In this document: piece after piece, positions 1-26,899 of the stretch
How the letters are laid out: each line of letters begins with the position of its first letter
Position numbering within the stretch: the stretch's first letter is position 1
Origin: a virus
Reading direction: 5' to 3' (one strand)
Virus record (IMG/VR): IMGVR_UViG_3300045988_046997
Span: 1-26,899 of that record
DNA: 26,899 nt
Made by a program: the position numbers and the translations under genes
The notes under the pieces: generated by a model
Databases searched by the model: none
What the model was told of the DNA's origin: nothing
What the model saw: the letters and a program-made list of their open reading frames with translations, nothing else

Positions 1-141
1 AGGAGGATCGCATGGAGTTATACGGGCTTGACAAGGGGTTCGGCTTGGTGACGGCGGCGATCCCGTACTTCAACCTGCAATGGAACAGGAAGTATTACGA
101 GTCGGGCACGTTCAGCTTGCAGATAACGGCTGACGTGTACG
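1..141. repeat. Terminal direct repeat: positions 1-141 are identical to 26759-26899. The contig is a circularly permuted or over-assembled circular genome with a unit length of 26,758 bp.
   Basis: Exact identity of the first 141 nt with the last 141 nt, read directly from the sequence. The CDS beginning at 12 re-starts at 26770. Confidence 0.9.
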
Positions 142-1046
142 ATCCGAGCTGGGCTTACATCGCTACGCACGACCGACCGGAGGTCGGAGTCGTGCAGAAG
201 ATCCAGTACACGAACGACGGCGGCGAGAAGCTAGTCCTGCTGTCTGGGTTCTTCGCGGAGCAGATGCTCAACGGCGTTGTGGCTTCCAAGAGGTTCACGG
301 CAGACCTGAGCAGGACTGAGAACGTCATCAAGCGCATGTACGACACGTTCGGCGTCCAAGCGAAGAAGGGCATCGCATGGAAGGCGAACGTTGACCCTCT
401 TGGAGACAGAACGCAGTGCGACTTCATCGGGGACAAGCTCGGCGAGAAGTGGCACTCGATGCTCGAGACTAGGGAGCTGAGCTACCGCGTCACCGCTAAA
501 GAGGACTTCAGCGGCCTTGAGTGCCAGATCTGGCAGGGCAAGGACAGGACGCAGTCTCAGGACGCGAACCCGTGGTGCGTGTTCAGCTCGGAGTTCGGGA
601 ACGTCGAGGACGAGGAGGTTTCCATAGACGGCTCGGCTTACGCTAACGTGTGCATTGTTTCCGCTAAAGACGAGGCTCTGAGCTTCGAGGTGGATCTGAG
701 CGGCGGAGGCGAGAGGTTCGAGACGTTCCTCGACAAGGGCAGCGAGTCTCCTGAGTCGGGGCAGGGCGATGAAGAGTTCAAGGCTGGCCTGAGGCAGGAG
801 GCTCTGGAGAAGCTTGCGGACTGCGTGGTCGTGCAGGAGATCGACGTTACGAACCTCGGCGAGTCCAACTACCTTGAGGACTTCGACCTCGGGGACAAGG
901 CGAGCATGGTTCTGGAGGACATCGGCTTGGAGCTTGAAACGCGCATCGTCGAGGTCTCCGAGGTGTTCAAACCAGATGGACACAGTGTACAATTGGGATT
1001 CGGTAGCAAACGCATAACGAACATCAGGAGGGCGGTAACGCGATGA
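12..1046 (+). CDS. Tail-associated minor structural protein, Gp37-like or Tal-position (downstream of Dit, upstream of tail fibre)
   Basis: 344-aa ORF with an AGGAGG RBS at 2-7. It follows the Dit-like gene once the window is circularised and overlaps the tail-fibre gene by ATGA. The family call rests on position and general sequence style only. Confidence 0.45.
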   Translation: MELYGLDKGFGLVTAAIPYFNLQWNRKYYESGTFSLQITADVYDPSWAYIATHDRPEVGVVQKIQYTNDGGEKLVLLSGFFAEQMLNGVVASKRFTADLSRTENVIKRMYDTFGVQAKKGIAWKANVDPLGDRTQCDFIGDKLGEKWHSMLETRELSYRVTAKEDFSGLECQIWQGKDRTQSQDANPWCVFSSEFGNVEDEEVSIDGSAYANVCIVSAKDEALSFEVDLSGGGERFETFLDKGSESPESGQGDEEFKAGLRQEALEKLADCVVVQEIDVTNLGESNYLEDFDLGDKASMVLEDIGLELETRIVEVSEVFKPDGHSVQLGFGSKRITNIRRAVTR

Positions 1047-2536
1047 AAGTCTTTCCAGTTGACAGCATCGTCACGAGGCTAGGAGACGACGGGCTTCCGA
1101 TTTACGACCGTCCGTACGCCAGCGCGGACTTGCGCGAAGTGTACGCGAACTTCTTCAGCAACGGCGTGTTCATGGACGACGGCACATCATTGCAGGTGAT
1201 GGCTGCTGCTGGCGGCATGAACGTCGTCGTGAAGGCTGGAACATGCCACATGAACGGCGCATTCGGCTTCGAGACGGTTGATAGGACGTTGCAGCTCGAC
1301 GCTGCCAGCCCTAGCCTCGACCGCATCGACACGGTCGTTGCGCGCCTCGATCTAGGCATCGACGCGCGTTCGATCGACTTGTACGTTTTGAAGGGGACTC
1401 CTGCGGCTGATCCCGTAAGAAGGAACCTCACGCGCAACGAGACGGTGTGGGAACTCGGATTGGCGGATATCTACCTGCCAAAGGGCATCGTAACGGTCAG
1501 CCAAGGGCGCATCAGCGACACGCGCTTGGAGACCGAACGGTGCGGGGCTGTGGCGCCGTTCGTGGAGTTCGACACGACGACTCTGTACGACCAGTTGAAG
1601 CAGGCTACAGCCGACGCGGTGGACGCTATGCAGGACGCGCTCGGCGGCACGACGGCTGGGAACCTGCAACGCTACCGCCGAAGCTTGAGAGTCGAGACTG
1701 AGATCCCGAGAGGCGCGGATCTGAACACGTACCAGTCGGCGGGAAACTACGGCTGCTCCGTTGCACTGAACGTCGCGACCATCGCGAACAAGCCGAGCGG
1801 TCTAGACGATCCGTTCCTGCTGTTCGTTCATGCCGTCGGTAGTTCAATCATGCAAGAGATCGTCGATTCTAAAGGCTCTCGCTGGTGCAGGGCAGGAATT
1901 GGAGAGTGGGAGCAGACGTACGACTCGCGCCAGACCGTCCCCGTGAAAAACGGCGGCACCGGCGCGGCTTCGCTCACGTCGAACGCTGTGCTTCTGGGCA
2001 ACGGAACTGACGCGGTTAACCATGCGGCTCCGTCGAGCGGCGCATTGTACGCGACCGGAGCGACGAGCAAGCCGACGTTCGGTACCCTGCCGATCGCTCA
2101 GGGCGGAACCGGAGCCACGAGCGGGTCGTCTGCGCTGTCCAACCTCGGGATCAAGAAGTGGCTGTTGGACAACGTCTTCAAGGTCGGTTACGTCTGGGTG
2201 TCGTACACGTCCACGTCACCAGCAAGCATCATCGGCGGTTCATGGACTGCTATAACTGGCAGGTTCCCGTACTTCAATGCAGGAACGAGTACCGGCGGCA
2301 GCAACACTCACACGCTCACCGTGAGTCAGATGCCTTCTCACAATCATAGTATCATCGACGGCTTAGGCGCTGGCTGGAATCCTACGGGATCCGCTGGAGA
2401 CAAGCTGTTTTACGGCAGTTACGCTTCAGGTCGCAGTATATCGGAGTTCTTTGGCACCAGATACGAAGGCGGCGGAGGTTCACATAACAACATGCCTGCG
2501 TATCAAACGCTGTATGCATGGAGGCGTACGGATTAA
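1043..2536 (+). CDS. Tail fibre / receptor-binding protein with C-terminal phage tail collar domain
   Basis: 497 aa. The C-terminus ...HTLTVSQMPSHNHS... matches the tail-collar signature (QMPSHxH). Gly/Thr-rich GGTGA(A/T)S repeats are present. The N-terminal ...SLDRIDTVVARLDLG... resembles BppU/fibre N-domains. Confidence 0.75.
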   Translation: MKVFPVDSIVTRLGDDGLPIYDRPYASADLREVYANFFSNGVFMDDGTSLQVMAAAGGMNVVVKAGTCHMNGAFGFETVDRTLQLDAASPSLDRIDTVVARLDLGIDARSIDLYVLKGTPAADPVRRNLTRNETVWELGLADIYLPKGIVTVSQGRISDTRLETERCGAVAPFVEFDTTTLYDQLKQATADAVDAMQDALGGTTAGNLQRYRRSLRVETEIPRGADLNTYQSAGNYGCSVALNVATIANKPSGLDDPFLLFVHAVGSSIMQEIVDSKGSRWCRAGIGEWEQTYDSRQTVPVKNGGTGAASLTSNAVLLGNGTDAVNHAAPSSGALYATGATSKPTFGTLPIAQGGTGATSGSSALSNLGIKKWLLDNVFKVGYVWVSYTSTSPASIIGGSWTAITGRFPYFNAGTSTGGSNTHTLTVSQMPSHNHSIIDGLGAGWNPTGSAGDKLFYGSYASGRSISEFFGTRYEGGGGSHNNMPAYQTLYAWRRTD

Positions 2537-2550
2537 CGGAAGGAGCGAAC

Positions 2551-3084
2551 ATGGTCGCAGCATTCGACGAACAGTGGAACATGGTTGATGATCCAGACAC
2601 GACCAAAGGCGAGGTAAGGTACGAGAGTGTAGCAGTCGAGTGCCGCTACGTCATCGATCAGGAAGAGCGAGGCCACTATGAGGTGATACGTGAGTATCCG
2701 AACGGCGGCAAGGACGTTGAGTGGAATGTTGACACGCCAGAGGTAGGCGGATGGCGCTATTACCGCAACGGCGAAGAGTGGAGCGAATGCCCAATAGAGA
2801 TACCAGATGACTGGTCTCACGAGAACGTCGTCAACACATACGTAAGCGTTGCGCGTTGGCGCGAGTACACGGTCGACGAACTTGCCGAGATCACGAAGAA
2901 GAAGGCCGAAACAGAGAAGAAGCTTCAGGACGCAAGGGACAAGGCTGAGCTAATTGATGCTTTGCCTGATGCGGTGGCGGATCTGTCGGAGCAGGTGTCG
3001 AGCAATGCGACGAGCAACGCAGACCTCGCGGACGCTCTCGCGGATCTGTCGATGGTCGTCAGCAACCTTGCTGGGTCGAAGTAA
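2551..3084 (+). CDS. Hypothetical protein in the XkdW position of a PBSX-like late region, possibly fibre-associated
   Basis: ORF 2518-3084. Start preferred at ATG 2551, which has a GGAAGGAG RBS 6 nt upstream. The C-terminal low-complexity tail is ADLADALADLS. Confidence 0.5.
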   Translation: MVAAFDEQWNMVDDPDTTKGEVRYESVAVECRYVIDQEERGHYEVIREYPNGGKDVEWNVDTPEVGGWRYYRNGEEWSECPIEIPDDWSHENVVNTYVSVARWREYTVDELAEITKKKAETEKKLQDARDKAELIDALPDAVADLSEQVSSNATSNADLADALADLSMVVSNLAGSK

Positions 3085-3232: not shown

Positions 3233-3324
3233 CGTTTTGCTGCGGTTCCTGCCTTCCGCAGCGGTGTATGAGGTCGAGAGTTCTCTCGGCCTCTGTTGCC
3301 GTTTAGGCATTGAACGGAGACAGC

Positions 3325-3630
3325 GTGGACGACATCGAAGAGCGCGTTTGCAAGCTTGAAGCCGAAAACCAGCAGGTAATCGCCGACGTTAGGACGCTCG
3401 GGGAGCGAGTCGGCAGGCACGGATCAGAGCTTGACGAGCTGAAGATCAAGAGCGCGACGATGAACACGGTTTTAACTAGGATCGACGCGACCGTGGCGAA
3501 GATCGACGGTCGGTTGGACGCTCAGCAGATGAAGCCTGCGCAGCGATGGGACGACATCGTGAAGCAGGTTATTACTCTGGTCATAGCAGCCGCCTTCGGC
3601 GCTGTGATGGTTAATCTCGGTTTTCAGTAA
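3325..3630 (+). CDS. XhlA-like protein (N-terminal coiled coil, C-terminal transmembrane helix); lysis-associated
   Basis: ORF 3310-3630 with a TTG at 3310. GTG at 3325 has a GGAGA RBS 4 nt upstream. The coiled coil IEERVCKLEAENQQV... is followed by the hydrophobic C-terminus VITLVIAAAFGAVMVNLGF. It sits directly before the holin, as xhlA does in PBSX. Confidence 0.55.
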   Translation: MDDIEERVCKLEAENQQVIADVRTLGERVGRHGSELDELKIKSATMNTVLTRIDATVAKIDGRLDAQQMKPAQRWDDIVKQVITLVIAAAFGAVMVNLGFQ

Positions 3631-3640
3631 AGGGGGACTT

Positions 3641-3850
3641 ATGGAAAAGAGTTACATGCTGCCTGACAAGGCTTACGACGTTATGAAGTGGGCGGGTCTG
3701 ATCGCCTGCCCCGCGCTTGCGGCGTTCTACGGCGCGACGGCTCCGCTGTGGGGATGGCCTGCACCTGAAGCAGTGGTAACCACGATCAACTCGGTTGGCG
3801 TTCTGATCGGCGCTTTGATCGGCGCAAGCCACATGAAAGCGAGGTCTTAA
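3641..3850 (+). CDS. Holin (class II-like, two transmembrane segments)
   Basis: 69 aa with an AAAGGGGGA RBS. Two hydrophobic helices (WAGLIACPALAAFYGATAPLW and VTTINSVGVLIGALIGA) precede a basic C-terminus HMKARS. It is immediately upstream of the endolysin, whose ATG overlaps the holin stop. Confidence 0.7.
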   Translation: MEKSYMLPDKAYDVMKWAGLIACPALAAFYGATAPLWGWPAPEAVVTTINSVGVLIGALIGASHMKARS

Positions 3851-3851
3851 G

Positions 3852-4853
3852 ATGGGATGCGCGAACATCGCAGCGACGCTCATGGAGCACCTGTGCAACC
3901 ACGACTGGCACGGCTATAGCCAGCTTGGTCGCTACGGCGACGGCGAGGGCACCTGCCAAGTCGAGGTCGAGGGTCGCACCTATTACCTGCAACAGGGAGA
4001 CCGCGACTGCTCAAGCGCGGTTATCGAGTGCTGGCGCTCGGCGCTCATCGGCACTGCCTATGAAGGCGCACTGGATGAGGCAATCACCACTCGCAATATG
4101 CGCAGCGTGTTTGCGAACTCTGGTCTGTTCGATGTCTGGGACACGCGAGCCACAGTAGCTCAGCGCGGGGACGTGTACCTCAACGACGCCGACCATACCG
4201 CAATGTGCACGTGCGCAGACCCCGACCTACTGGGCGAGTTCTCAATCTCTGAGAACGGCGGCATCGACGGAGAAGTCGGCGACCAGACCGGTTGGGAGTC
4301 GAGCGTTCATGGCTACTACGACTTCCCATGGGATTGCACTCTGCATTACAACGGCAAGGCGGACGGCGCAGAACCTGCCGACAAGCCCATTGAGGTCGCC
4401 CCTCAGCCCTCGCAGCAACCTCAGACTAACGGTCTGCATGTCCGCTACCGCGCTTGCACTCAGGCAAGCGGCTGGTTGGCTGAGATGGTAGACCGCACGG
4501 ACACGAGCGGCTACATCGACGACTTCGCTGGAGACGGAAGCCCGATCACCTATCTTGCGATGGACTTCCCGGGCTGGTATCAGGTTCAGACGGTCAACAA
4601 TGGCTGGCTTCCGAAGGTGTCCAGCTACAACGTGGACGATCTGGAGAACGGCTGCGCTGGCGACGGTTCGCCGATCATCGGCGTTCGCTGCTACTACGAG
4701 ACGCAAGACCCGAACACGACGGGCTGGAAGGCTATCCATTACGCGGTCAACGATCTTGCTGAGATGCGCGACAACGACGCCGACCAGTACGGAGACGACT
4801 TCGCAGGAAACGGCGAGACCGTGACCAAGTTCTACGCTTACATCGGCGATTAG
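3852..4853 (+). CDS. Endolysin: N-terminal Amidase_5-type (Pal-like) catalytic domain plus three C-terminal ~45-aa repeats, tentatively ChW-like
   Basis: The motif ...YYLQQGDRDCSSAVIECW... then ...DADHTAMCT... parallels the Cys and His motifs of streptococcal phage Pal-type amidases. The C-terminal repeats share LAEM-D--D---Y-DDFAG(D/N)G. Confidence 0.8.
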   Translation: MGCANIAATLMEHLCNHDWHGYSQLGRYGDGEGTCQVEVEGRTYYLQQGDRDCSSAVIECWRSALIGTAYEGALDEAITTRNMRSVFANSGLFDVWDTRATVAQRGDVYLNDADHTAMCTCADPDLLGEFSISENGGIDGEVGDQTGWESSVHGYYDFPWDCTLHYNGKADGAEPADKPIEVAPQPSQQPQTNGLHVRYRACTQASGWLAEMVDRTDTSGYIDDFAGDGSPITYLAMDFPGWYQVQTVNNGWLPKVSSYNVDDLENGCAGDGSPIIGVRCYYETQDPNTTGWKAIHYAVNDLAEMRDNDADQYGDDFAGNGETVTKFYAYIGD

Positions 4854-4894
4854 GTTCTAGCTAGGTCGCAGTATGTTCTAGCAGAACAGATCGA

Positions 4895-4923
4895 GACCCC
4901 TCATCGCGAGGGGTCTTTTATTG
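4895..4923 (+). terminator. Rho-independent terminator T1 after the endolysin
   Basis: GACCCCTC-atcgc-GAGGGGTC: 8-bp GC-rich stem followed by TTTTATTG. Confidence 0.75.
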
Positions 4924-4933
4924 TCAAAAGTGT

Positions 4934-4962
4934 TTGCAATTGAAAACGTAATATGCTAAGAT
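4934..4962 (+). promoter_or_regulatory. Early promoter P1: -35 TTGCAA (4934-4939), 17-bp spacer, extended -10 TGcTAAGAT (4954-4962)
   Basis: Sigma70-like hexamers with exact 17-bp spacing. A GTTTGC half-site overlaps the -35 box. The same architecture recurs at P2 and P3. Confidence 0.7.
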
Positions 4963-6154: not shown

Positions 6155-6183
6155 TTGCAATCAAAAACGTAACGTATTAAGAT
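6155..6183 (+). promoter_or_regulatory. Early promoter P2: -35 TTGCAA (6155-6160), 17-bp spacer, -10 TAAGAT (6178-6183)
   Basis: A paralogue of P1. A GTTTGC half-site overlaps the -35 box, and the spacer contains the shared AAAACGTAA. Confidence 0.7.
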
Positions 6184-7117: not shown

Positions 7118-7581
7118 AGCAGGTGATCGAGCACGGATTCTCATGGGACGAGGAGACGGGCGAGGTTCTGTTCGAGGAGTCTGATCTGGAGAGCCTTCAA
7201 GTGGCGCTCAGCGACAAGCTGGAGGCATGTGGCATCTGGATCAAGAACCAGAAGGCGCTGGCGGACGCTATCAAGGCGGAGGAGAAGGCTCTGAGCGACC
7301 GCAGGAAGTCGATCGAGAAGAGGCTGGAGAGGATGGACGGGTACGTGCTCCGATGCTTGATGAAAACGCCGAAGCAGAGCGTGGAAACGCCGATGGTCTC
7401 GCTGAAGACGAGGAAGTCGACGCGAACGATCATCGACGACGAGTCGGAGGTGCCCGAGGAGTTCACCGAGCATGTCGTCACCGTGAAAGTGAACAAGGCG
7501 GAGATCGGCAAGGCGCTCAAGGCGGGCCGAGAAGTGTCTGGCGCCCATCTGGAGACGAGCCAGAACTTGCAAGTGAAATGA
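7084..7581 (+). CDS. Siphovirus Gp157-like protein
   Basis: The ORF extends from 7039. The start is placed at GTG 7084, which has a GGAGGA RBS. The N-terminus (M)ATLYELDKAIEQ... and the ...EEKALSDRRKSIEKR... coiled coil resemble Gp157-family proteins. Confidence 0.6.
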   Translation: MATLYELDKAIEQVIEHGFSWDEETGEVLFEESDLESLQVALSDKLEACGIWIKNQKALADAIKAEEKALSDRRKSIEKRLERMDGYVLRCLMKTPKQSVETPMVSLKTRKSTRTIIDDESEVPEEFTEHVVTVKVNKAEIGKALKAGREVSGAHLETSQNLQVK

Positions 7582-7597: not shown

Positions 7598-8287
7598 TTG
7601 GCGGGAAAGCGGATGTTCTCGCGGGACGTCGTCGGCTCCGACGGCTTCGCGGATATGGGCTTCGAGGCTCAGGCGCTATACGTCCACCTGTCGATGGACG
7701 CTGACGACTGGGGTTTCGTAGGAGCTCCGAAGAGGGTTCAGCGCTCCATTGGATCTCGACAAGAGGCTCTGAGAGAGCTTGAGAAGTCGGGTTTCGTTCA
7801 TGTGTTCGAGAGCGGCGTTCTGGCTATCATGGACTGGTGGCAGAACAACACGATCACGGAGAGCAGGCGGAAGGCGACGCAATACGAGGCGGAGCTGGCG
7901 CAGCTGACGGTCACGGATTGCGGTTCCTACCAGCTCGTTTGCGAACCGCAAGCAAACTGCATGCAAAGTGCATGCGAAACGCCTGCTAGTTTAGATGAGG
8001 TTAGTTCAGTTAAATCTAGTTCAGATAAGAAGAAGCCCGCGCGTCATGCCTACGGCACGTACAAGAACGTCCTGTTATCCGATGAAGAGCTGGAGAAGCT
8101 GAAGACGGAGTTTCCGAGCGATTGGCAGGAGCGCATAGAGTCGATATCCACTTATTGCGCATCGAAGGGCAAGGCTTACCGAAACTATCTGGCGACGATC
8201 CGTGCATGGGCGAAACGCGACGGCAAGAAGGGAGGATCGAGAGATGCGGCTGTCTTCGATGCAATCGGCTTTTCAAACGGTGCTTGA
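7598..8287 (+). CDS. Replisome organiser / replication initiator with a DnaD-like C-terminal domain
   Basis: TTG start with a GGAAGGAGG RBS. The C-terminal ...AYRNYLATIRAWAKRDG... is DnaD/DnaB_2-like. An internal iteron + AT-rich element at 7935-8035 encodes the inter-domain linker. Confidence 0.6.
   Translation: MAGKRMFSRDVVGSDGFADMGFEAQALYVHLSMDADDWGFVGAPKRVQRSIGSRQEALRELEKSGFVHVFESGVLAIMDWWQNNTITESRRKATQYEAELAQLTVTDCGSYQLVCEPQANCMQSACETPASLDEVSSVKSSSDKKKPARHAYGTYKNVLLSDEELEKLKTEFPSDWQERIESISTYCASKGKAYRNYLATIRAWAKRDGKKGGSRDAAVFDAIGFSNGA
7935..8035. repeat. Putative origin element oriA inside the replisome-organiser gene
   Basis: Five 11-bp-spaced iterons (GTTTGCgaac, gCAAGCAAA, CTGCATGCAAA, GTGCATGCGAAA, GCCTGCtag) are followed by the AT-rich tagtttagatgaggttagttcagttaaatctagttcagataag. 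About 85 bp of this aligns with 21410-21492. Confidence 0.6.
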
Positions 8288-9077
8288 CGCGCACGAGTCT
8301 GATCCAGTCGGCGACGGGGTCTTCATCGCCGAGGACGGTCTCGCTCATTGCGAGAAGTGCGGCACTCCGATGCAGGTCATCATAACCGACCCGATGGGGA
8401 GGAAACGCACGATGCCGTGCGCCTGCAAATGCATGATCGAGGCTGAGGAACAGCGGAAGCTGGAGGATCAGCGCAGGCGATCCGAGGCGGCTAAGAGGTC
8501 GCGGGTCAGGGCGGCGTTCCCGTTCGAGTCGATGCGCGGGAAGACCTTCTCAGCCGATGACGGGAAGTTCGGCGCAGACCAGATGCGGAAGGCGAGGGCT
8601 TACGCCAAGCGGTTCGTGGAGACTGACGGGAAGATCGACTACGGTTTGCTTTTCTTCGGGAAGCCGGACAGCGGGAAGACGTTCTTGAGCTGCTGCATCG
8701 CAAACGAGGCTCTGGACGCTGGGAAGTCCGTCATCATGCGATCGATGCCGCAGTTGCTCGTCCAGCGCGACGACTCGATGCTCGGCAGGCTGCTCAGGTG
8801 CGACCTGCTCGTCATAGACGATCTGGGAGCCGAGCGCAGCACGTCGTACGGTCAAGAGTACGTCTACGCGGTCGTTGACGGAAGGTACAGCGCGAAGAAG
8901 CCGATGATCGTGTCAACGAACCTGACGCGCGAGGAGCTGGCGGCTCCAGCTGACATCATGTCGGCGAGGATCTACGGGAGAGTGCTGGAGGCTTGCCTGC
9001 CGATCGAGGTGGAGACGGGAAGGCGCAGGGCTACCCGAGACCGATACCGCGAAATAATGGACGACATGGGCGTGTAA
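8244..9077 (+). CDS. DnaC/IstB-like AAA+ helicase loader
   Basis: The ORF extends from 8202. The start is at ATG 8244, which has a GGGAGGA RBS. Walker A FFGKPDSGKTFL; Walker B LLVIDDLGAE. Confidence 0.8.
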   Translation: MRLSSMQSAFQTVLDAHESDPVGDGVFIAEDGLAHCEKCGTPMQVIITDPMGRKRTMPCACKCMIEAEEQRKLEDQRRRSEAAKRSRVRAAFPFESMRGKTFSADDGKFGADQMRKARAYAKRFVETDGKIDYGLLFFGKPDSGKTFLSCCIANEALDAGKSVIMRSMPQLLVQRDDSMLGRLLRCDLLVIDDLGAERSTSYGQEYVYAVVDGRYSAKKPMIVSTNLTREELAAPADIMSARIYGRVLEACLPIEVETGRRRATRDRYREIMDDMGV

Positions 9078-10334: not shown

Positions 10335-10365
10335 GTTTGCAAACGTGAATGAATCATGCTAAGAT
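10335..10365 (+). promoter_or_regulatory. Middle promoter P3: -35 TTGCAA (10337-10342) inside the perfect palindrome GTTTGCAAAC (10335-10344), 17-bp spacer, extended -10 TGcTAAGAT (10357-10365)
   Basis: Hexamers and 17-bp spacing read directly. The operator-like palindrome overlaps the -35 box. Confidence 0.7.
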
Positions 10366-11572: not shown

Positions 11573-12009
11573 TGAGGAACCCGAGCGTTTACGAGCTGGT
11601 GGAATGGGACACGGGGAGGGTATTGATCCACGGAACGAAAAGCTACATTGCTGATCAGCTCGGGTTGTCGCTTTACTCAGTGGACACGATCATCAGCCAC
11701 GCGAGGAAGGGCATCGGGGCGACGAGGGTCGCGTTCTTCGATCCAGCGATCCACTACCGCGCGTCAAACGGCGATCAGGTCATCGAGGGCACGTGCGACG
11801 AGATAAGCAAGGCGATCGATAGAACACGGTTCTCGGTCATGACGGCGGCGCAGAAAGGGTACGTGACCACGAACGGGTGGAGGATCGAAGAGGTTGAGCC
11901 AGAGTGCTGGTGTGCGTTCGGTGTTCGCAAACGATACAACGACGCTGTGTCGAGGCTGAAAAGCGCGACGCGCCGTGGCAAGGTAAAACGATCTAAGGAG
12001 AGCAGATGA
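11572..12009 (+). CDS. Hypothetical protein, possibly a DNA-binding regulator
   Basis: ATG overlaps the dut TGA. ...SYIADQLGLSLYSVDTIISHARKG... is HTH-like. The C-terminus is basic. Confidence 0.45.
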   Translation: MRNPSVYELVEWDTGRVLIHGTKSYIADQLGLSLYSVDTIISHARKGIGATRVAFFDPAIHYRASNGDQVIEGTCDEISKAIDRTRFSVMTAAQKGYVTTNGWRIEEVEPECWCAFGVRKRYNDAVSRLKSATRRGKVKRSKESR

Positions 12010-12707
12010 AGGTTCGCGTGATTAGAGCAACGACGAGCCCGATGCACGCAATCAGCGAAGAGGCTGGGATATGTTACGGCAAAACTGACTACAACCCGAA
12101 GCGAGTGGAGCGTTGTCTGAGGAACGGTCACACGAGCGTCGCCGAGCACGTTTCCGCGTCGTTCCGCATCGAGGGAATCAGCCGATCCTGTTTGGCGCAG
12201 CGTATGCGGAATGAAATCCACTTCATGCGCCTCAACCGAGAGTGGTATGAATCCGAGGACAGTACGGTCGAGTGTGGCAACCGTGCGTTCAGGGACATAG
12301 CGAACGCCGTAATCCCCTATAGCCATTTTGGCAATAATTACATCGAAATCGTTGAACGCATTGCAGACCTCATCGAGCCGCAATTGATCGACGGCGAGAC
12401 ATCGGACGGCTACCACACGTTTAACGAGCTCTACCATCATCGAGCCGTGCTGTTCTCGGTGATCGTGTCGAGCTTCAGCGATCGAGCTTGGAAGTCTAAG
12501 CTGCACGCTGATGGCACCATGTACGACGGAATGTTCATCGTCGGCATCGAGACTCCAGACGGGCAAGCGACGTACCATTACGACGTAGAGCCTTACTGGG
12601 ATCTGTTCCGATGCAAGGAGGTTGACCGTGCGCCGGAGTGGGACGGGCACACACCCGGCCAAGCCATTGAGCGAATCGGCAAGCTTGCTGAGAATGCAGT
12701 AAAATAA
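12006..12707 (+). CDS. Divergent ThyX-like (flavin-dependent thymidylate synthase fold) protein with an altered signature motif
   Basis: AGGAGAG RBS. The N-terminus ...CLRNGHTSVAEHVSASFRIEGISRSCLAQRMRNEIHFMRLNREWY aligns with the ThyX segment ...[40 protein letters not shown]. The RHR-X7-S motif is replaced by RMR..H.... Confidence 0.45.
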   Translation: MKVRVIRATTSPMHAISEEAGICYGKTDYNPKRVERCLRNGHTSVAEHVSASFRIEGISRSCLAQRMRNEIHFMRLNREWYESEDSTVECGNRAFRDIANAVIPYSHFGNNYIEIVERIADLIEPQLIDGETSDGYHTFNELYHHRAVLFSVIVSSFSDRAWKSKLHADGTMYDGMFIVGIETPDGQATYHYDVEPYWDLFRCKEVDRAPEWDGHTPGQAIERIGKLAENAVK

Positions 12708-12844: not shown

Positions 12845-13318
12845 TTGGAGAAGGACAAGGAGAAACACGCAGGGGGACAGCCGACGAAGTACGTTGAGAG
12901 CGTCCACGTGCCGTGGGGCGTGTCCCTTGCGCGTCGAGGATGCACTGACGAGGAGATAGCGGAGGCGTTCGGGGTCAGCACCAGAACCGTTTACCGCTGG
13001 AAGAACGCGCATCCCGAGTTCTGTCACGCCATAAGCGAGACGAAGAGCCAAGCCGATGAGAGAGTCGTCGAGGGTCTTTACAAGCGCGCGTGCGGCATGA
13101 TCGTCGTGAACAAGACGGAGAGCGTAACGGAGCGCGACGGCGTGAAGACGAAGAAGACCGAGAAGGTAACGAAGGAGCTTCCGCCAGACTCCGTGGCGGC
13201 TATGTTCTGGCTGAAGAACAGGCAGCCGACGCTTTGGAGCGACAACCCTGCGGAGCAGACGCGAACCGCGTCAGACGAGGCTATCAAGGACGCGATCAGG
13301 AATGCGGGTCTGAGCTGA
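12845..13318 (+). CDS. terS: Terminase small subunit
   Basis: TTG start. HTH ...CTDEEIAEAFGVSTRTVYRWKNAHPEF... and ...AAMFWLKNRQPTLWSDN..., typical of TerS. Located directly upstream of TerL. Confidence 0.7.
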   Translation: MEKDKEKHAGGQPTKYVESVHVPWGVSLARRGCTDEEIAEAFGVSTRTVYRWKNAHPEFCHAISETKSQADERVVEGLYKRACGMIVVNKTESVTERDGVKTKKTEKVTKELPPDSVAAMFWLKNRQPTLWSDNPAEQTRTASDEAIKDAIRNAGLS

Positions 13319-17149: not shown

Positions 17150-17181
17150 ATTCATGTATGAAATAATATAAGCATTACCGT

Positions 17182-17210
17182 TTACAAACAGAAACAAGCA
17201 ATACTATAAT
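17182..17210 (+). promoter_or_regulatory. Promoter P4: -35 TTACAA (17182-17187), 17-bp spacer, -10 TATAAT (17205-17210)
   Basis: Consensus-like hexamers. The upstream GTTTACAAAC is a near-palindrome related to the P3 operator. The 39-nt leader at 17212-17250, identical to the P3 leader, follows. Confidence 0.7.
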
Positions 17211-17673: not shown

Positions 17674-17686
17674 GAAGGAGCAAGAA

Positions 17687-18016
17687 ATGGCAAAGGAGCA
17701 TGATGGGCGTTTCGGCAAGTTGTACTCGGCATGGGCGTACGACGAGAACGAGGACGCGATGAGGGACGCGAACGCGAGGGTTTACCACGATCTTAGGGCA
17801 GCGGTAAGTATCAATCCGCGCAACACGGACGATGCGAAGGGGAAGGATGAACTCGTTTACGAGAACAGTGCGACAGGGTACGCGCACAGGAGCTTCATGG
17901 TGAAGGCAAAGCCAGAGTGGATGACGATGGCGGAAGCCGCGCTGGTGATCGACATGGGGAGCCTGTGCTTCGGGTTCCAGACGATGGGCAACGTCGTTAC
18001 CATCTTCACGGACTAG
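17687..18016 (+). CDS. Hypothetical protein (109 aa), moron gene 3
   Basis: Internal ATG with a GGAAGGAG RBS. The ORF-track start at 17597 overlaps the previous gene without an RBS. Confidence 0.45.
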   Translation: MAKEHDGRFGKLYSAWAYDENEDAMRDANARVYHDLRAAVSINPRNTDDAKGKDELVYENSATGYAHRSFMVKAKPEWMTMAEAALVIDMGSLCFGFQTMGNVVTIFTD

Positions 18017-18123
18017 CGAACAACACACAGACGATAAACGAGCGTCCTGCGCTTCACGAGAGCGCGGGGCGCGTTGTGCTATCATGCGGGAAGCAGCCGC
18101 GTGCTTCAACGCGGCACGTTCCC

Positions 18124-20345: not shown

Positions 20346-20753
20346 ATGCCGTACGTAACCTATGAGGAGTACCAGCAGGCAGGCGGGAAGCTGACGGAAG
20401 CCGAGTTCGACGTTCAGGAGCCTAGGGCTGAGGTCATGCTCGATGGATGGACGATGAACCGACTGAAGGAGCAGAGCGTCGTTGACGACCTGAAGGCGAT
20501 GGGCGATTGGCGCAGCGTCGTGATCGCCGTGTGCTGGCTCACCGACCAGATGCAGGGCATCGAGAAGGCGCGCAAAGCGAAGGCCGACGGCGCGGAGGTA
20601 ACGAGCTTCAACAACGGCGTGAACTCGTTCTCGTTCGGCGGCGGCTCGTCGAGCGACGCGACCGCTGCGGAGTCGTCCGCGTACCACGAGGTGGTCAGGA
20701 TCCTTCCAGTGGAGCTCGTGAGCGCCTGCGTGTCGTACAACAACGCGCGTTAG
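20346..20753 (+). CDS. Putative head-tail connector / adaptor (gp6/gp15-like)
   Basis: Size, N-terminus MPYVTYEEYQQ... and position after the capsid gene. Weak. Confidence 0.4.
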   Translation: MPYVTYEEYQQAGGKLTEAEFDVQEPRAEVMLDGWTMNRLKEQSVVDDLKAMGDWRSVVIAVCWLTDQMQGIEKARKAKADGAEVTSFNNGVNSFSFGGGSSSDATAAESSAYHEVVRILPVELVSACVSYNNAR

Positions 20754-20763
20754 GGGGGTTGAC

Positions 20764-21240
20764 GTGAACATCGACGTTGACGGCCTGTTGGATCGGACGG
20801 TGACGGTCATCAACCGCATCGGCGCGAAGGAGTCGGGGGAGGAGTCGGACATTTACCGACCGATCGTCCTGCGACCCGCCCAGTGGGCTGAGACCATGAC
20901 CAGAACCACGGACGCTGACGGGACTGTCCACCTGAAGAGATCGGTCAGGGTTCAGGTTCCGAGCGGCACGGCGACGTTCAAGCCCTACCGCGAATGGGTC
21001 TCAGAAGCTGTGAGAGGCTCCACAGATGGCGTTTACACGTTCTCGCTGCACGACTACGTGGTCGAGGGTGATTTGGGCGTTGCAGGCGATCTGACGCGCC
21101 AAGAGGCGTTGCAGGCGATCGAGGGAAAGCCTCACTGCGAGGTGTCCGCCTTCCGAGACTTGAGGAACGGCGGCGCGGTCGAGGCTCCGGAGGTCGGCTG
21201 CCTGAAGTACGCTTCGGTGATCTACGCGGAGGGGGTTTAG
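20764..21240 (+). CDS. Putative head closure / head-tail joining protein
   Basis: GTG start with a GGGGGG RBS. Position only. Confidence 0.35.
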   Translation: MNIDVDGLLDRTVTVINRIGAKESGEESDIYRPIVLRPAQWAETMTRTTDADGTVHLKRSVRVQVPSGTATFKPYREWVSEAVRGSTDGVYTFSLHDYVVEGDLGVAGDLTRQEALQAIEGKPHCEVSAFRDLRNGGAVEAPEVGCLKYASVIYAEGV

Positions 21241-21258
21241 ATGCGCGGTTTCGGTAGG

Positions 21259-21495
21259 AGCTTGCATGCGTTCTGCATGCAAACTGCATGCATTGTGCGT
21301 GCAACTGCAAGCGTTCTGCATGCGGTCTGCGAAGTTAGCGGTTCCCTCGTCAAAATGCGATGGGAAAACCGAAAAAACCGCGTTTGACCTGCTTGTTTGC
21401 AAACTGCAAGCAAACTGCATGCAAACTGCATGCAAAATGCTTGCTAGTATAGGTTAGTTTAGGTTAGTTTAGGTTAGTTTAGATAAGTATAGAGA
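21259..21495. repeat. Putative origin element oriB: two clusters of 11-bp-spaced iterons separated by an A-tract, followed by an AT-rich tandem repeat tract
   Basis: Cluster I has about 7 units at 21262, 21273, 21284, 21295, 21305, 21316 and 21327. Cluster II has 5 units at 21394, 21404, 21415, 21426 and 21437 and includes GTTTGCAAAC. The A-tract GGGAAAACCGAAAAAACCG lies at 21362-21380. The AT-rich tract is 21445-21495. It is non-coding, and 21410-21492 aligns with 7952-8035. Confidence 0.6.
21451..21480. repeat. Perfect tandem repeat (AGGTTAGTTT) x3 flanked by related TAGTAT / AGATAAGTAT units
   Basis: Read directly. This is the most AT-rich stretch of the genome, a candidate DNA-unwinding element. 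Confidence 0.8.
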
Positions 21496-21505
21496 GGATG
21501 CGCGC

Positions 21506-21838
21506 ATGGCTACCGTGACGCTCGACCTCGACGGAGTGGACGCTAAGGCAAGCAGGATTAAGAACAACGAGACCTTCGGTCTGTTCATCGCCACCGAGGC
21601 GATGCGCGGCATGTCGCCATACGTCCCGTTCAGGAACGGCTACCTCGACGCTTCGGCGAAAGCGGAGCCGTTCGCCGTGACGTACCAGACCTCGTACGTC
21701 TCGAAGGTGTACCACGGGACTCACATGCGTTTCTCGAAGGAGCGGCACGCTCTGGCCACCGCCGAGTGGGACAAGGCTTACGCTGCGGCTCACGGGCAGG
21801 AGCTGGCGCAGGCTTGCACGGCGTATCTGAAGAGGTGA
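21506..21838 (+). CDS. Putative HK97 gp10-like / tail-completion protein
   Basis: 110 aa with an AGAGAGGA RBS. Size and position only. Confidence 0.35.
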   Translation: MATVTLDLDGVDAKASRIKNNETFGLFIATEAMRGMSPYVPFRNGYLDASAKAEPFAVTYQTSYVSKVYHGTHMRFSKERHALATAEWDKAYAAAHGQELAQACTAYLKR

Positions 21839-21842
21839 TCTG

Positions 21843-22280
21843 ATGGGATCCAACGGTAAGACCGCAGCCGTCGTCGAATGGCTGAAGACGTACCCGGAGC
21901 TTGACGGGTACCTGAAGCTGAACGCGACGGAGCTGGAGGCTGGCGAGCGCACGGTTGACACCGTGTACAACGACGCGAAGGTTCGCGAGTTCATAGACGG
22001 GACAGTGGAGAGGCAGTACACGTTCGCCGTCGTGATGGTGTGCGACTGGTCGTCTGGCTTCGACGCGGTCAACGCTGAGGCGGAGAGCTGGGGCGAGCGG
22101 TGGCTCGACTGGTGCGACGCTCAGTTCAAGGCAGGGAACGTGCCAGGATTCGGCGGAAAGTGTACAATACGGGCGATAGAATCGCTCCAGAACATCCCTT
22201 CGTTGGCTGCGACCTATCAGGAAGAGCAACTGGCTCGGTACATGTTCCAAGCGCGCATCACGTATTGGGAGAAGGAGTAA
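21843..22280 (+). CDS. Putative tail terminator / tail component
   Basis: 145 aa. Located immediately upstream of the major tail protein. Confidence 0.35.
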   Translation: MGSNGKTAAVVEWLKTYPELDGYLKLNATELEAGERTVDTVYNDAKVREFIDGTVERQYTFAVVMVCDWSSGFDAVNAEAESWGERWLDWCDAQFKAGNVPGFGGKCTIRAIESLQNIPSLAATYQEEQLARYMFQARITYWEKE

Positions 22281-25875: not shown

Positions 25876-26760
25876 GTGGAACAGGTTCTGCTGCGCATCG
25901 TCAGGGACGACGGCTTGGTGTTCGACATAGACAACTTGGTCTGGATGATCCCGAGCGACGGCTTGGAGAACTGGGCGAACCTGCCGCACTCGGTGTCGGT
26001 GCAGGAGAACGCCAGCTACGACGGCGGAGTTGTGACGAACAAGAGGATCGAGACGGTGGACAGGTCGGTTCACGCAGAGCTGGCGAACCCGGCGGACAAC
26101 GCCGAGAAGCGTCTGGAAGCGATCCGCTTCTTCAGCCCGAAGCACACGTACGACGCTCACCTGACGTATCAGGGTCGGACGCGTTGGTGCCACGGCGAGC
26201 AGTACGCCTTCAAGTGCGACGCGGGGAACATATACGCCCCAGTGTCGTTCGATTGGACGATCTTGTGTCCCATGCCGTACCTGCTGAGCGAGGACGACTT
26301 CGGAAAAGACGTCGCGTTCGTCACCGGCAAGTTCGGCTTCCCATACCATTCCGTCGTTCAGAGCACGCCGAGCGGGGTCTACAAGCGCGGCTTCGTCATG
26401 GGCGTTTACGACTTCAATAAAACTGTTGACATCGCCAACGACGGCGACGTGACGACATTCCCGAGGGTCGTCGTCAAGGCTGACGGAGTTGTGGAGAACC
26501 CGAAGATCAGCATCGGCGACAAGTTCGTCCGCTTCGTCGGCACGTTGCAGCAGGGTGACGAGCTGGTGATCGACTTCGATAAGAGGCCGCCGAGAGTGGA
26601 GCTGAACGGGAAGAACGCGATGAACAAGGTGGATCGCTCCAGCTCGTTCACGTCTTTCCAGATCGAGCCCGGCGACACTACATTCACGTACGACGCTGAT
26701 TCCGGCGAAAACGTCATGTCGGTCTCGCTGTTCTACCGCAAACGCTACCTCGGGATCTAG
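25876..26760 (+). CDS. Distal tail protein (Dit, Sipho_tail-like)
   Basis: GTG start with an AGGAGG RBS. 294 aa. Located directly after the tape measure gene. Confidence 0.55.
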   Translation: MEQVLLRIVRDDGLVFDIDNLVWMIPSDGLENWANLPHSVSVQENASYDGGVVTNKRIETVDRSVHAELANPADNAEKRLEAIRFFSPKHTYDAHLTYQGRTRWCHGEQYAFKCDAGNIYAPVSFDWTILCPMPYLLSEDDFGKDVAFVTGKFGFPYHSVVQSTPSGVYKRGFVMGVYDFNKTVDIANDGDVTTFPRVVVKADGVVENPKISIGDKFVRFVGTLQQGDELVIDFDKRPPRVELNGKNAMNKVDRSSSFTSFQIEPGDTTFTYDADSGENVMSVSLFYRKRYLGI

Positions 26761-26769
26761 GAGGATCGC

Positions 26770-26899
26770 ATGGAGTTATACGGGCTTGACAAGGGGTTCG
26801 GCTTGGTGACGGCGGCGATCCCGTACTTCAACCTGCAATGGAACAGGAAGTATTACGAGTCGGGCACGTTCAGCTTGCAGATAACGGCTGACGTGTACG
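26770..26899 (+). CDS. Truncated second copy of the CDS at 12-1046, produced by the terminal redundancy of the contig
   Basis: Identical to 12-141 and runs off the window end. Confidence 0.8.
   Translation, partial: MELYGLDKGFGLVTAAIPYFNLQWNRKYYESGTFSLQITADVY

Follow-up and report, generated by a model that had tools for sequence, protein, structure and literature searches.

The late element and its copy in the organizer gene

The window, i.e. the whole stretch of 26,899 nucleotides of the virus record IMGVR_UViG_3300045988_046997 (IMG/VR, positions 1 to 26,899), contains a repetitive, non-coding element at positions 21241-21505, hereafter called the late element, which interrupts the morphogenesis genes between headX and Minor_capsid_2. 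Part of this element is also present inside the gene of a DnaD-like replisome organizer. The late element is probably a second, non-coding copy of the origin core of this phage and a functional analogue of oriR of phage SPP1. The parts of the late element and the features to which it is related are as follows:

21241-21505, + strand: whole late non-coding element, between headX (20764-21240) and Minor_capsid_2 (21506-21838)
21263-21327, + strand: left iteron array of six TGCNNGC units with varied 4-nt spacers, from repeat finding
21328-21404, no strand: spacer, variable in sequence and kept in length
21405-21448, + strand: right iteron array of four units, a unit-for-unit match to the intragenic array
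21445-21494, no strand: (TAGNT)n tract, TAGTTTAGGT x 3.8, candidate DNA-unwinding element, from Tandem Repeats Finder (TRF) and nearest-neighbour energy
21495-21505, + strand: ribosome-binding region AGAGGAT... directly 5' of the ATG of Minor_capsid_2
7929-8029, + strand: putative intragenic origin-core copy in the linker of the organizer gene, from blastn and TRF
7598-8287, + strand: replisome organizer (DnaD-like), the predicted iteron-binding protein

The region had been described in the initial annotation, made from the letters alone, as a 265-bp repetitive non-coding gap between a head-tail gene and the tail genes, and the open reading frames (ORFs), the insertions and deletions (indels) among relatives and the stop codons all agreed with this. 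The indels measure 11, 22 and 66 bp in the arrays and 5-15 bp in the (TAGNT)n tract, and since they are not all multiples of three and (TAGNT)n places stop codons in all three frames, the element is non-coding. It had been stated to be the only large gap among the structural genes and is the largest clearly non-coding one of the structural module; a 400-bp stretch at 17674-18073 is free in the ORF list only, and a close relative has called genes there.

The estimate of about 12 units of 11 bp in two phased clusters was a fair one. There are ten strict TGCNNGC units, six left and four right, in addition to degenerate ones. Those of the left array start at 21263, 21274, 21285, 21296, 21306 and 21317 (steps of 11, 11, 11, 10 and 11 bp) and those of the right array, TGCAAGCAAAC, TGCATGCAAAC, TGCATGCAAAA and TGCTTGCTAGT, at 21405, 21416, 21427 and 21438. 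TRF reported a period of 11 at 21263-21330 (6.3 copies) and at 21398-21444 (4.3 copies, 88 % matches), followed by a period of 10 at 21445-21482 (3.8 copies, 96 % matches). Six of the 13 exact TGCNNGCA sites of the genome lie inside the late element and one more in the intragenic copy. The spacer carries a degenerate unit, GTTTGCAAAC, at approximately 21394 and an A-rich motif, GGAAAACCGAAAAAACCGCG, at 21363-21382. The bent A-tract which had been placed between the clusters corresponds to this motif and is present in the window and in its nearest relative (L206), but not in the main clade of relatives described below; its interpretation as a general functional bend was rejected as clade-specific, the conserved property of the spacer being its length.

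Nearest-neighbour energies put the stability minimum of the genome, for windows of 50 bp, at 21444-21494 (z = 5.3), although by plain AT content (72-75 % AT) the tract ranks third and is not the most AT-rich stretch of the genome, as had been claimed. No match was obtained with the late element alone in a sensitive blastn search of the phage genome collection, and scans for Rfam families, transfer RNAs and sigma-70 promoters found nothing within it.

When the element was compared with the whole genome by blastn, only one strong second match was found, between 21387-21487 and 7929-8029 on the same strand, with 81 % identity over 101 ungapped bp (E 1e-18). A second match at about 7935-8035 had been named beforehand as a check on the origin-pair idea. 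The intragenic iterons start at 7947, 7958, 7969 and 7980, and their units, CGCAAGCAAAC, TGCATGCAAAG, TGCATGCGAAA and CGCCTGCTAGT, correspond one to one with those of the late array; the 11-bp unit was independently found by TRF at 7940-7980. The copy sits in the interdomain linker of the organizer, where it encodes ...CEPQANCMQSACETPASLDEVSSVKSSSDKKK..., and its TAG tract (7986-8036) ranks fourth for low stability among all 50-bp windows of the genome, after three that are located in intergenic gaps.

The assignment of 7598-8287 as the replisome organizer was upheld by matches to the PHROG 'DnaD-like helicase loader / replisome organizer' families (phrog_8489, 4e-48), by the similarity of its N-domain to Rep2009 (43 % identity) and by the DnaC/IstB-like loader gene that follows. 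No match to the organizer was obtained by sequence search in the Protein Data Bank. The features of an iteron-type theta origin were all found, namely at least three phased direct repeats, an adjoining tract of low stability and an initiator gene in cis. A scan of viral contigs with a 14-mer for the intragenic junction returned chance matches only, and a scan with a pattern of 15 specified bases returned only relatives that were already known.

In the window the two copies lie 0.503 of the genome length apart (positions 7985 and 21443), and the separation is 0.492, 0.518 and 0.478 in L207, L219 and contig 3300014963_000062, respectively, the four genomes spanning 26.8-32.8 kb. Such near-diametric spacing may fit a terminus-like or barrier role, or may be a by-product of gene order.

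Conservation among relatives

The relatives, which come from human-gut metagenomes, form two clades, one consisting of the window and its near-twin L206 and the other, the main clade, of the many other genomes. All close relatives have the late element at the junction of the same two genes. The two clades are saturated for change at four-fold degenerate codon sites, where identity is 0.48-0.51, and the spacer of the window is as diverged from the main clade (0.41-0.48), whereas the right array together with the TAG tract has retained 0.83-0.92 identity. The right array alone is 86-90 % identical to those of relatives and the left array 70-74 %; relatives have between 4 and 9 left units and a tract of variable length. 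In nine of ten genomes, exactly 88 bp (8 x 11) lie between the start of the last left unit and that of the first strict right unit. The 11-bp register is therefore common to the whole element, suggesting that a single nucleoprotein complex is formed on it. To judge from these alignments, the right array and tract are under purifying selection in the genomes which have the same type of organizer as the window (type A, see below).

Both copies were verified in the window, L207, L208, L213, L219 and contig 3300014963_000062. L206 probably also holds both; an organizer 91 % identical to that of the window was tentatively linked to it. Within-genome concerted evolution of the two copies was considered and dropped, as there was no excess similarity between them.

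In more distant relatives, with about 56-58 % headX identity, the element is minimal. L221 has the right array and tract in 131 bp, and L222 (1415-1450) and L223 (1099-1134) carry (TACGACTACGG) x 3, a different 11-bp repeat, directly 5' of a type-A right array. In L224 and L225 (55 % identity) there is no gap and the two flanking genes overlap. This gradation from minimal to absent elements suggests that the element began as an old insertion of the origin core, and the upstream array appears to have been acquired later. A relative search anchored on TerL reached only distant, unrelated phages, and repeat scans of these loci and of the loci from a distant tail-protein search found nothing comparable to the late element.

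Organizer types and their exchange

At least four types of organizer N-domain occur in this phage group, each with its own internal repeats:

Type A: repeat TGCNNGCAAAC; the window and type-A relatives
Type B: repeat GGTGATAAAACATCAC x 4-5; contig 047184
Type C: 22-mer x 4; contig 094940
Type D: repeat GGAAAACCCAAAAAACCCAC; L003

The repeats are followed by an AT-rich or 5-bp-periodic tract in each of the four types. The co-variation of repeats and N-domain type supports the prediction that the in-gene repeats are the binding sites of the organizer. The A-rich spacer motif GGAAAACCGAAAAAACCGCG (21363-21382) agrees with the type-D iteron (GGAAAACCCAAAAAACCCAC, L003 9860-9930) in 16 of its 20 positions, and no second match of this kind occurs in the genome. 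The motif is also present in L206 and absent from the main clade, and could either be what remains of an iteron or be due to chance.

Type B and C genomes have four-fold identities of 0.74-0.88 to the type-A genomes of the main clade, of which they are, by this measure, recent offshoots. Their whole replication module is located between the minor head protein and scaffold genes. In the sub-lineage comprising L184+L165 (contig 047184), L203, L217 and L218, the early or replication module consists of organizer, annealase, SSB and Gp157, and in some of an HNH endonuclease; terS is found almost directly after the lysis genes in this module-shifted sub-lineage. The slot between minor head protein and scaffold is where SPP1 carries oriR and genes 8-10. 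A fully assembled type-B genome contained neither a type-A N-domain nor a second type-A array. A small winged-helix-like protein of the type-B module was considered as a substitute for the type-A N-domain and discarded, having no BLASTP similarity to it and no Pfam family.

The constraint on the late core differed with the type of organizer in a comparison based on 3 and 4 genomes and about 110 sites: among main-clade type-A genomes 17 of 113 core positions were segregating against 94 of 344 four-fold sites (ratio 0.55, Fisher p = 0.008), and among type B or C genomes 11 of 113 against 24 of 248 (ratio 1.0, Fisher p = 1). In L226, a main-clade genome with a lysis cassette of the B/C type, only a 91-bp remnant is left, without iterons and with a degraded tract. 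The remnant (1077-1167) is GC-rich and has a GC-rich hairpin, CCGGCCCGGATCGGGCCGG. These patterns are suggestive of an element that is kept only while a type-A organizer is present.

Genome and gene order

Bases 1-141 of the window are identical to bases 26759-26899, and the window is therefore a circular assembly of a complete genome of approximately 26,758 bp. The GC content is 59 %, and all likely genes are on the + strand. Besides the organizer gene, the order is as follows:

12-3084, + strand: tail genes
3310-4853, + strand: lysis genes
from 4987, + strand: Erf-type annealase, a recombination gene
from 5715, + strand: SSB, a recombination gene
from 6659, + strand: RusA resolvase, a recombination gene
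from 7039, + strand: Gp157, grouped with the recombination genes, just upstream of the organizer gene
8202-9077, + strand: DnaC/IstB-like helicase loader (PF01695, 2e-11; phrog_50, 1.5e-46)
after the loader, + strand: HNH endonuclease and dUTPase
12845-13318, + strand: TerS
between TerS and the major capsid protein, + strand: TerL, portal, minor head protein and scaffold, in that order
from 18818, + strand: major capsid protein
from 20346, + strand: head-tail adaptor
20764-21240, + strand: headX, 158 amino acids, head-tail region (phrog_3366)
21506-21838, + strand: Minor_capsid_2 (PF11114)
between Minor_capsid_2 and the tape measure protein, + strand: tail completion protein
from 23825, + strand: tape measure protein

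The true start of the loader gene is probably downstream of 8202, because the loader and organizer genes of relatives overlap by a few bases only. Neither an integrase nor a helicase gene was found among the genes of the window. The ORF at 12006-12707 combines an N-terminal ThyX-like fragment (Thy1, PF02511) with a C-terminal WDGH domain (PF25311). TerL of several relatives is split by an intein (L207 8289-9965 and L218 7892-9965, both with Intein_splicing matches), that of L218 containing HNH_3; TerL of the window is without an intein.

A megablast search with 25 kb of the window gave no match in the phage genome collection, and neither the portal protein nor a 22-base pattern of the tract had a match in the bacterial genome collection.

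Proposed function and alternative explanations

In the scheme proposed here the primary copy of the origin would be that at 7929-8029, in the organizer-gene linker, which is the usual place for the origins of phages of the organizer type. The N-terminal DNA-binding domain of the organizer would bind the TGCNNGC units, and with their 11-bp spacing and common register the bound molecules would all come to lie on the same side of the helix, giving a nucleoprotein complex in which the DNA is wrapped. The adjoining (TAGNT)n tract would provide the easiest place of the genome to melt, and the DnaC-like loader would then deliver a helicase, presumed to be that of the host because no helicase gene was found in the phage. 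The late copy has the same right array and tract as the intragenic copy and, in register with them over a spacer of fixed length, a further upstream array of 4-9 units, so that more organizer should be bound here. Firing as a second origin is one possible outcome of this binding. Alternatively, the late complex may stall forks coming from the intragenic origin and so lead to a recombination-dependent switch to concatemer synthesis, as proposed for oriR of SPP1; an Erf-type annealase, SSB, RusA resolvase and Gp157 are encoded just upstream of the organizer gene.

Several observations weigh against an oriR-like second copy. The intragenic copy of the window is about equally similar to the late copies of relatives and to its own late copy. 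Type B and C genomes still carry a largely intact late type-A element; these elements are probably recent orphans, but may have a function that does not depend on the organizer. The small number of genomes and sites behind the relaxed-constraint test has been given above. Tuc2009, a phage with the same organizer family and with the organizer that is the nearest of the characterised ones, has no second origin copy that could be found in its genome, and a late copy is thus not needed by Rep2009 organizers generally. The cumulative GC skew, suggested in the initial annotation as a further check, rises monotonically and gives no origin signal; with all genes on one strand it is uninformative. The analysis itself covers the homology between the copies, the family of the organizer, the low stability, the selective constraint and its dependence on the type of organizer, whereas binding of the organizer, melting, and firing or stalling at the late element are inferred.

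An array which never fires, and which titrates the organizer, 'handcuffs' the intragenic origin or acts as a pure fork barrier, would be a possible, if less probable, explanation. Timing or limiting of initiation in this way is attributed to the extra iteron arrays of the plasmids P1 (incA) and F, and the late copy has two to three times as many units as the intragenic copy, the left array varying from 4 to 9. The position of the two copies almost half a genome apart in four genomes would suit such a role, but this spacing could also follow from gene order alone. The phage encodes Erf, SSB, RusA and Gp157, as required for recombination-dependent restart, and the literature on SPP1 favours a barrier role of oriR (PMC6316719, PMC3485210). 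A sink or barrier would not need the complete low-stability tract, which is strongly constrained in the late copy. The idea that the element is functionless, a relic of duplication or recombination, draws on its erosion in L226, its absence from L224 and L225 and its neutral rate of evolution in type B and C genomes. It is nevertheless highly improbable, given the conservation in type-A genomes (0.83-0.92 against 0.48-0.51 at four-fold sites; ratio 0.55, p = 0.008) and the spacer, whose length is fixed at 88 bp despite its randomised sequence.

The late element could instead serve late gene expression, providing activator or repressor sites or a messenger RNA leader for the tail block from 21506, its likeness to an origin being incidental or ancestral. 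It stops 10 bp short of the start codon of Minor_capsid_2, has the same orientation as that gene and has been kept by genomes whose organizers are of other types; late promoters preceded by phased direct repeats are, moreover, known for the activators of lactococcal phages. No sigma-70-type promoter is present in the element, however, and the promoter consensus of the phage itself is absent from it, and the same 101 bp also form part of a coding region, which would be an odd place for a late promoter. RNAalifold gave a covariation term of +1.56, i.e. no gain, and there was no Rfam match at the gathering score; the pairs that it predicts stem from the palindromic repeats, and many of them are broken in the sequence of the window. 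Constraint is also lost when the replication module is swapped, a weaker point, as a regulator may have been swapped along with it. An expression element is on balance unlikely. Less likely still is a pac or cos site at which the small terminase would bind for packaging. Such sites can be phased repeats with bent DNA, as is the pac of SPP1, and the element is inside the morphogenesis module, but pac and cos sites are normally in or adjoining terS and the element is located 8 kb downstream of terS (12845-13318). Furthermore, its homologue is a stretch within the organizer gene, the contigs of relatives break at many positions and none of them at the element, and the type of TerS does not co-vary with it.

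The generic promoter scan covered 20500-22000 and would miss the promoter-like sites of this phage, as these match the consensus at only 8 of 12 positions. Promoter-like TTGCAA-N17-TAAGAT occurs in intergenic DNA on the + strand at 4934-4962, 6155-6183 and 10337-10365, each time after TGTT, and the sites at 6155 and 10337 share an upstream TTTCTTTCG(G)AAAAC motif. TTTACA-N18-TATAAT is found at 17181-17210 (+ strand), again in intergenic DNA, after the gene of the minor head protein and before those that precede the scaffold gene.

A bolder version of the preferred reading, i.e. of a second origin-core copy analogous to oriR, is that the late site is a dedicated and evolvable 'second organizer dock' half a genome from the origin, a fork trap or switch from theta to concatemer replication that is re-fitted at each organizer exchange. 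This is rather doubtful. Hints which may be taken in its favour are the spacing of 0.48-0.52 in four genomes, the (TACGACTACGG) x 3 repeats of L222 in the position of the left array, the single L003-like motif of the spacer and the decay of the element once the organizer is mismatched. If it were true, the variants among these gut phages would be a direct comparative test of the role of an oriR-type site.

Comparison with known replication systems

The N-domain of the organizer has 42.7 % identity with Rep2009 of Lactococcus phage Tuc2009 (residues 1-127, E 3e-24) and is, by sequence, of the lactococcal Rep2009 type. The gene of Rep2009 (rep2009, orf16) is annotated in the Tuc2009 record as 'contains origin of replication'. 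Rep2009 and ORF13 of TP901-1 bind direct repeats in their own genes, and these repeats are the origin; for both phages, phage-encoded resistance (PER) from the origin cloned in trans and gel shifts of origin DNA by the organizer have been reported (PMC8965321). The in-gene origin of Tuc2009 consists of 11-bp repeats, GCAACCAAATG x 4-5, followed by GGATAGGATAGGAGAGGTTAGGTTAGGTAAGG. Tuc2009 and the phage of the window have in common an origin embedded in the organizer-gene linker and 11-bp direct repeats followed by a TTAGG/TAGGT-type tract, which also encodes an EV(S/R)LGK-like linker. The iterons differ (GCAACCAAATG in Tuc2009, TGCNNGCAAAC in the window), and Tuc2009 is a temperate phage of low GC content, whereas the phage of the window is a gut phage with 59 % GC in which no integrase was found.

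A 5-bp sub-period after the iterons is seen in three organizer types, as AACAG/AACTG in L003 (9927-9976), TAGGA/TAGGT in Tuc2009 (7485-7550) and TAGTT in the window (7986-8036). Within genes the 5-bp repeat is held to a coding-compatible period of 15 bp, and in the non-coding late copy the period is 5 or 10 bp. This freedom points to a role of the 5-bp repeat itself at the level of the DNA.

In P1 (incA) and F (incB/incC), additional initiator-binding arrays of variable copy number are located outside the array used for initiation, and the late element resembles them as an extra repeat array of variable copy number. The control arrays of these plasmids have no adjoining unwinding element, whereas the phage element keeps one under constraint.

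The closest likeness in layout is with SPP1, whose organizer G38P binds both oriL and oriR (PMC6316719, PMC3485210, PMC5737612). The same self-blastn procedure, run on the SPP1 genome as a positive control, recovered the published pair with similar statistics: 35950-36018 in gene 38 (oriL) against 4878-4948 (oriR), 83 % over 71 bp, E 2e-12, compared with 81 % over 101 bp in the phage of the window. Both phages have one core of iterons and AT-rich DNA in the organizer gene and a second in non-coding DNA interrupting the morphogenesis genes. In both the late copy contains the stretch of the genome with the lowest stability, which in SPP1 is a 50-bp window in oriR, and in both it has distal and proximal repeat clusters; the sequence of distal box cluster, spacer, proximal cluster and AT-rich tract in oriR is the layout of the late element. 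An annealase, an SSB and a Holliday-junction resolvase are encoded by SPP1 (PMC3485210) as well as by the phage of the window. The interpretation of the two sites as an origin pair like oriL and oriR, put forward in the initial annotation, is supported by this comparison.

The two systems differ in their components. The organizer has no sequence homology with G38P (BLASTP E = 2.2), and SPP1 has its own helicase, G40P, and loader, G39P, whereas in the phage of the window the loader is DnaC/IstB-like and a helicase gene was not found. In the SPP1 sequence oriR is flanked by genes 7 and 8 and preceded by a hairpin and T run resembling a terminator; the element of the window is between two head-tail connector genes, with no terminator found upstream. 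The copies are separated by 0.29/0.71 of the circle in SPP1 and by about 0.50 in the phage of the window. By analogy, the late element would work like oriR without being a descendant of the SPP1 system, since the organizer is not a homologue of G38P, the loader is IstB/DnaC-like and there is no replication ORF the size of a helicase.

According to the literature, G38P at oriR may halt replication forks and bring about the change to concatemer synthesis (PMC6316719, PMC3485210, PMC5737612); firing of oriR is not established, and a role as replication-fork barrier is favoured (PMC6316719, PMC3485210). A second, late organizer-binding site has so far been discussed essentially for SPP1 alone, either as an origin or as a fork barrier for the theta-to-sigma switch. 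The phage lineage described here is uncultured and present in hundreds of human-gut assemblies, and it offers a set of natural variants, with a matched organizer and a constrained element, with a swapped organizer and a drifting or eroded element, or with a minimal or absent element, which makes the function of an oriR-type site testable by comparison and by simple assays. The cloned element would be predicted to interfere with infection, as do cloned phage origins in lactococci (the PER effect), and both putative origin copies are now marked for the engineering and annotation of these phages. The arrangement is the known layout of SPP1 in a new example, in which it appears independently, with an organizer of a different family (Rep2009 type) and a different loader.

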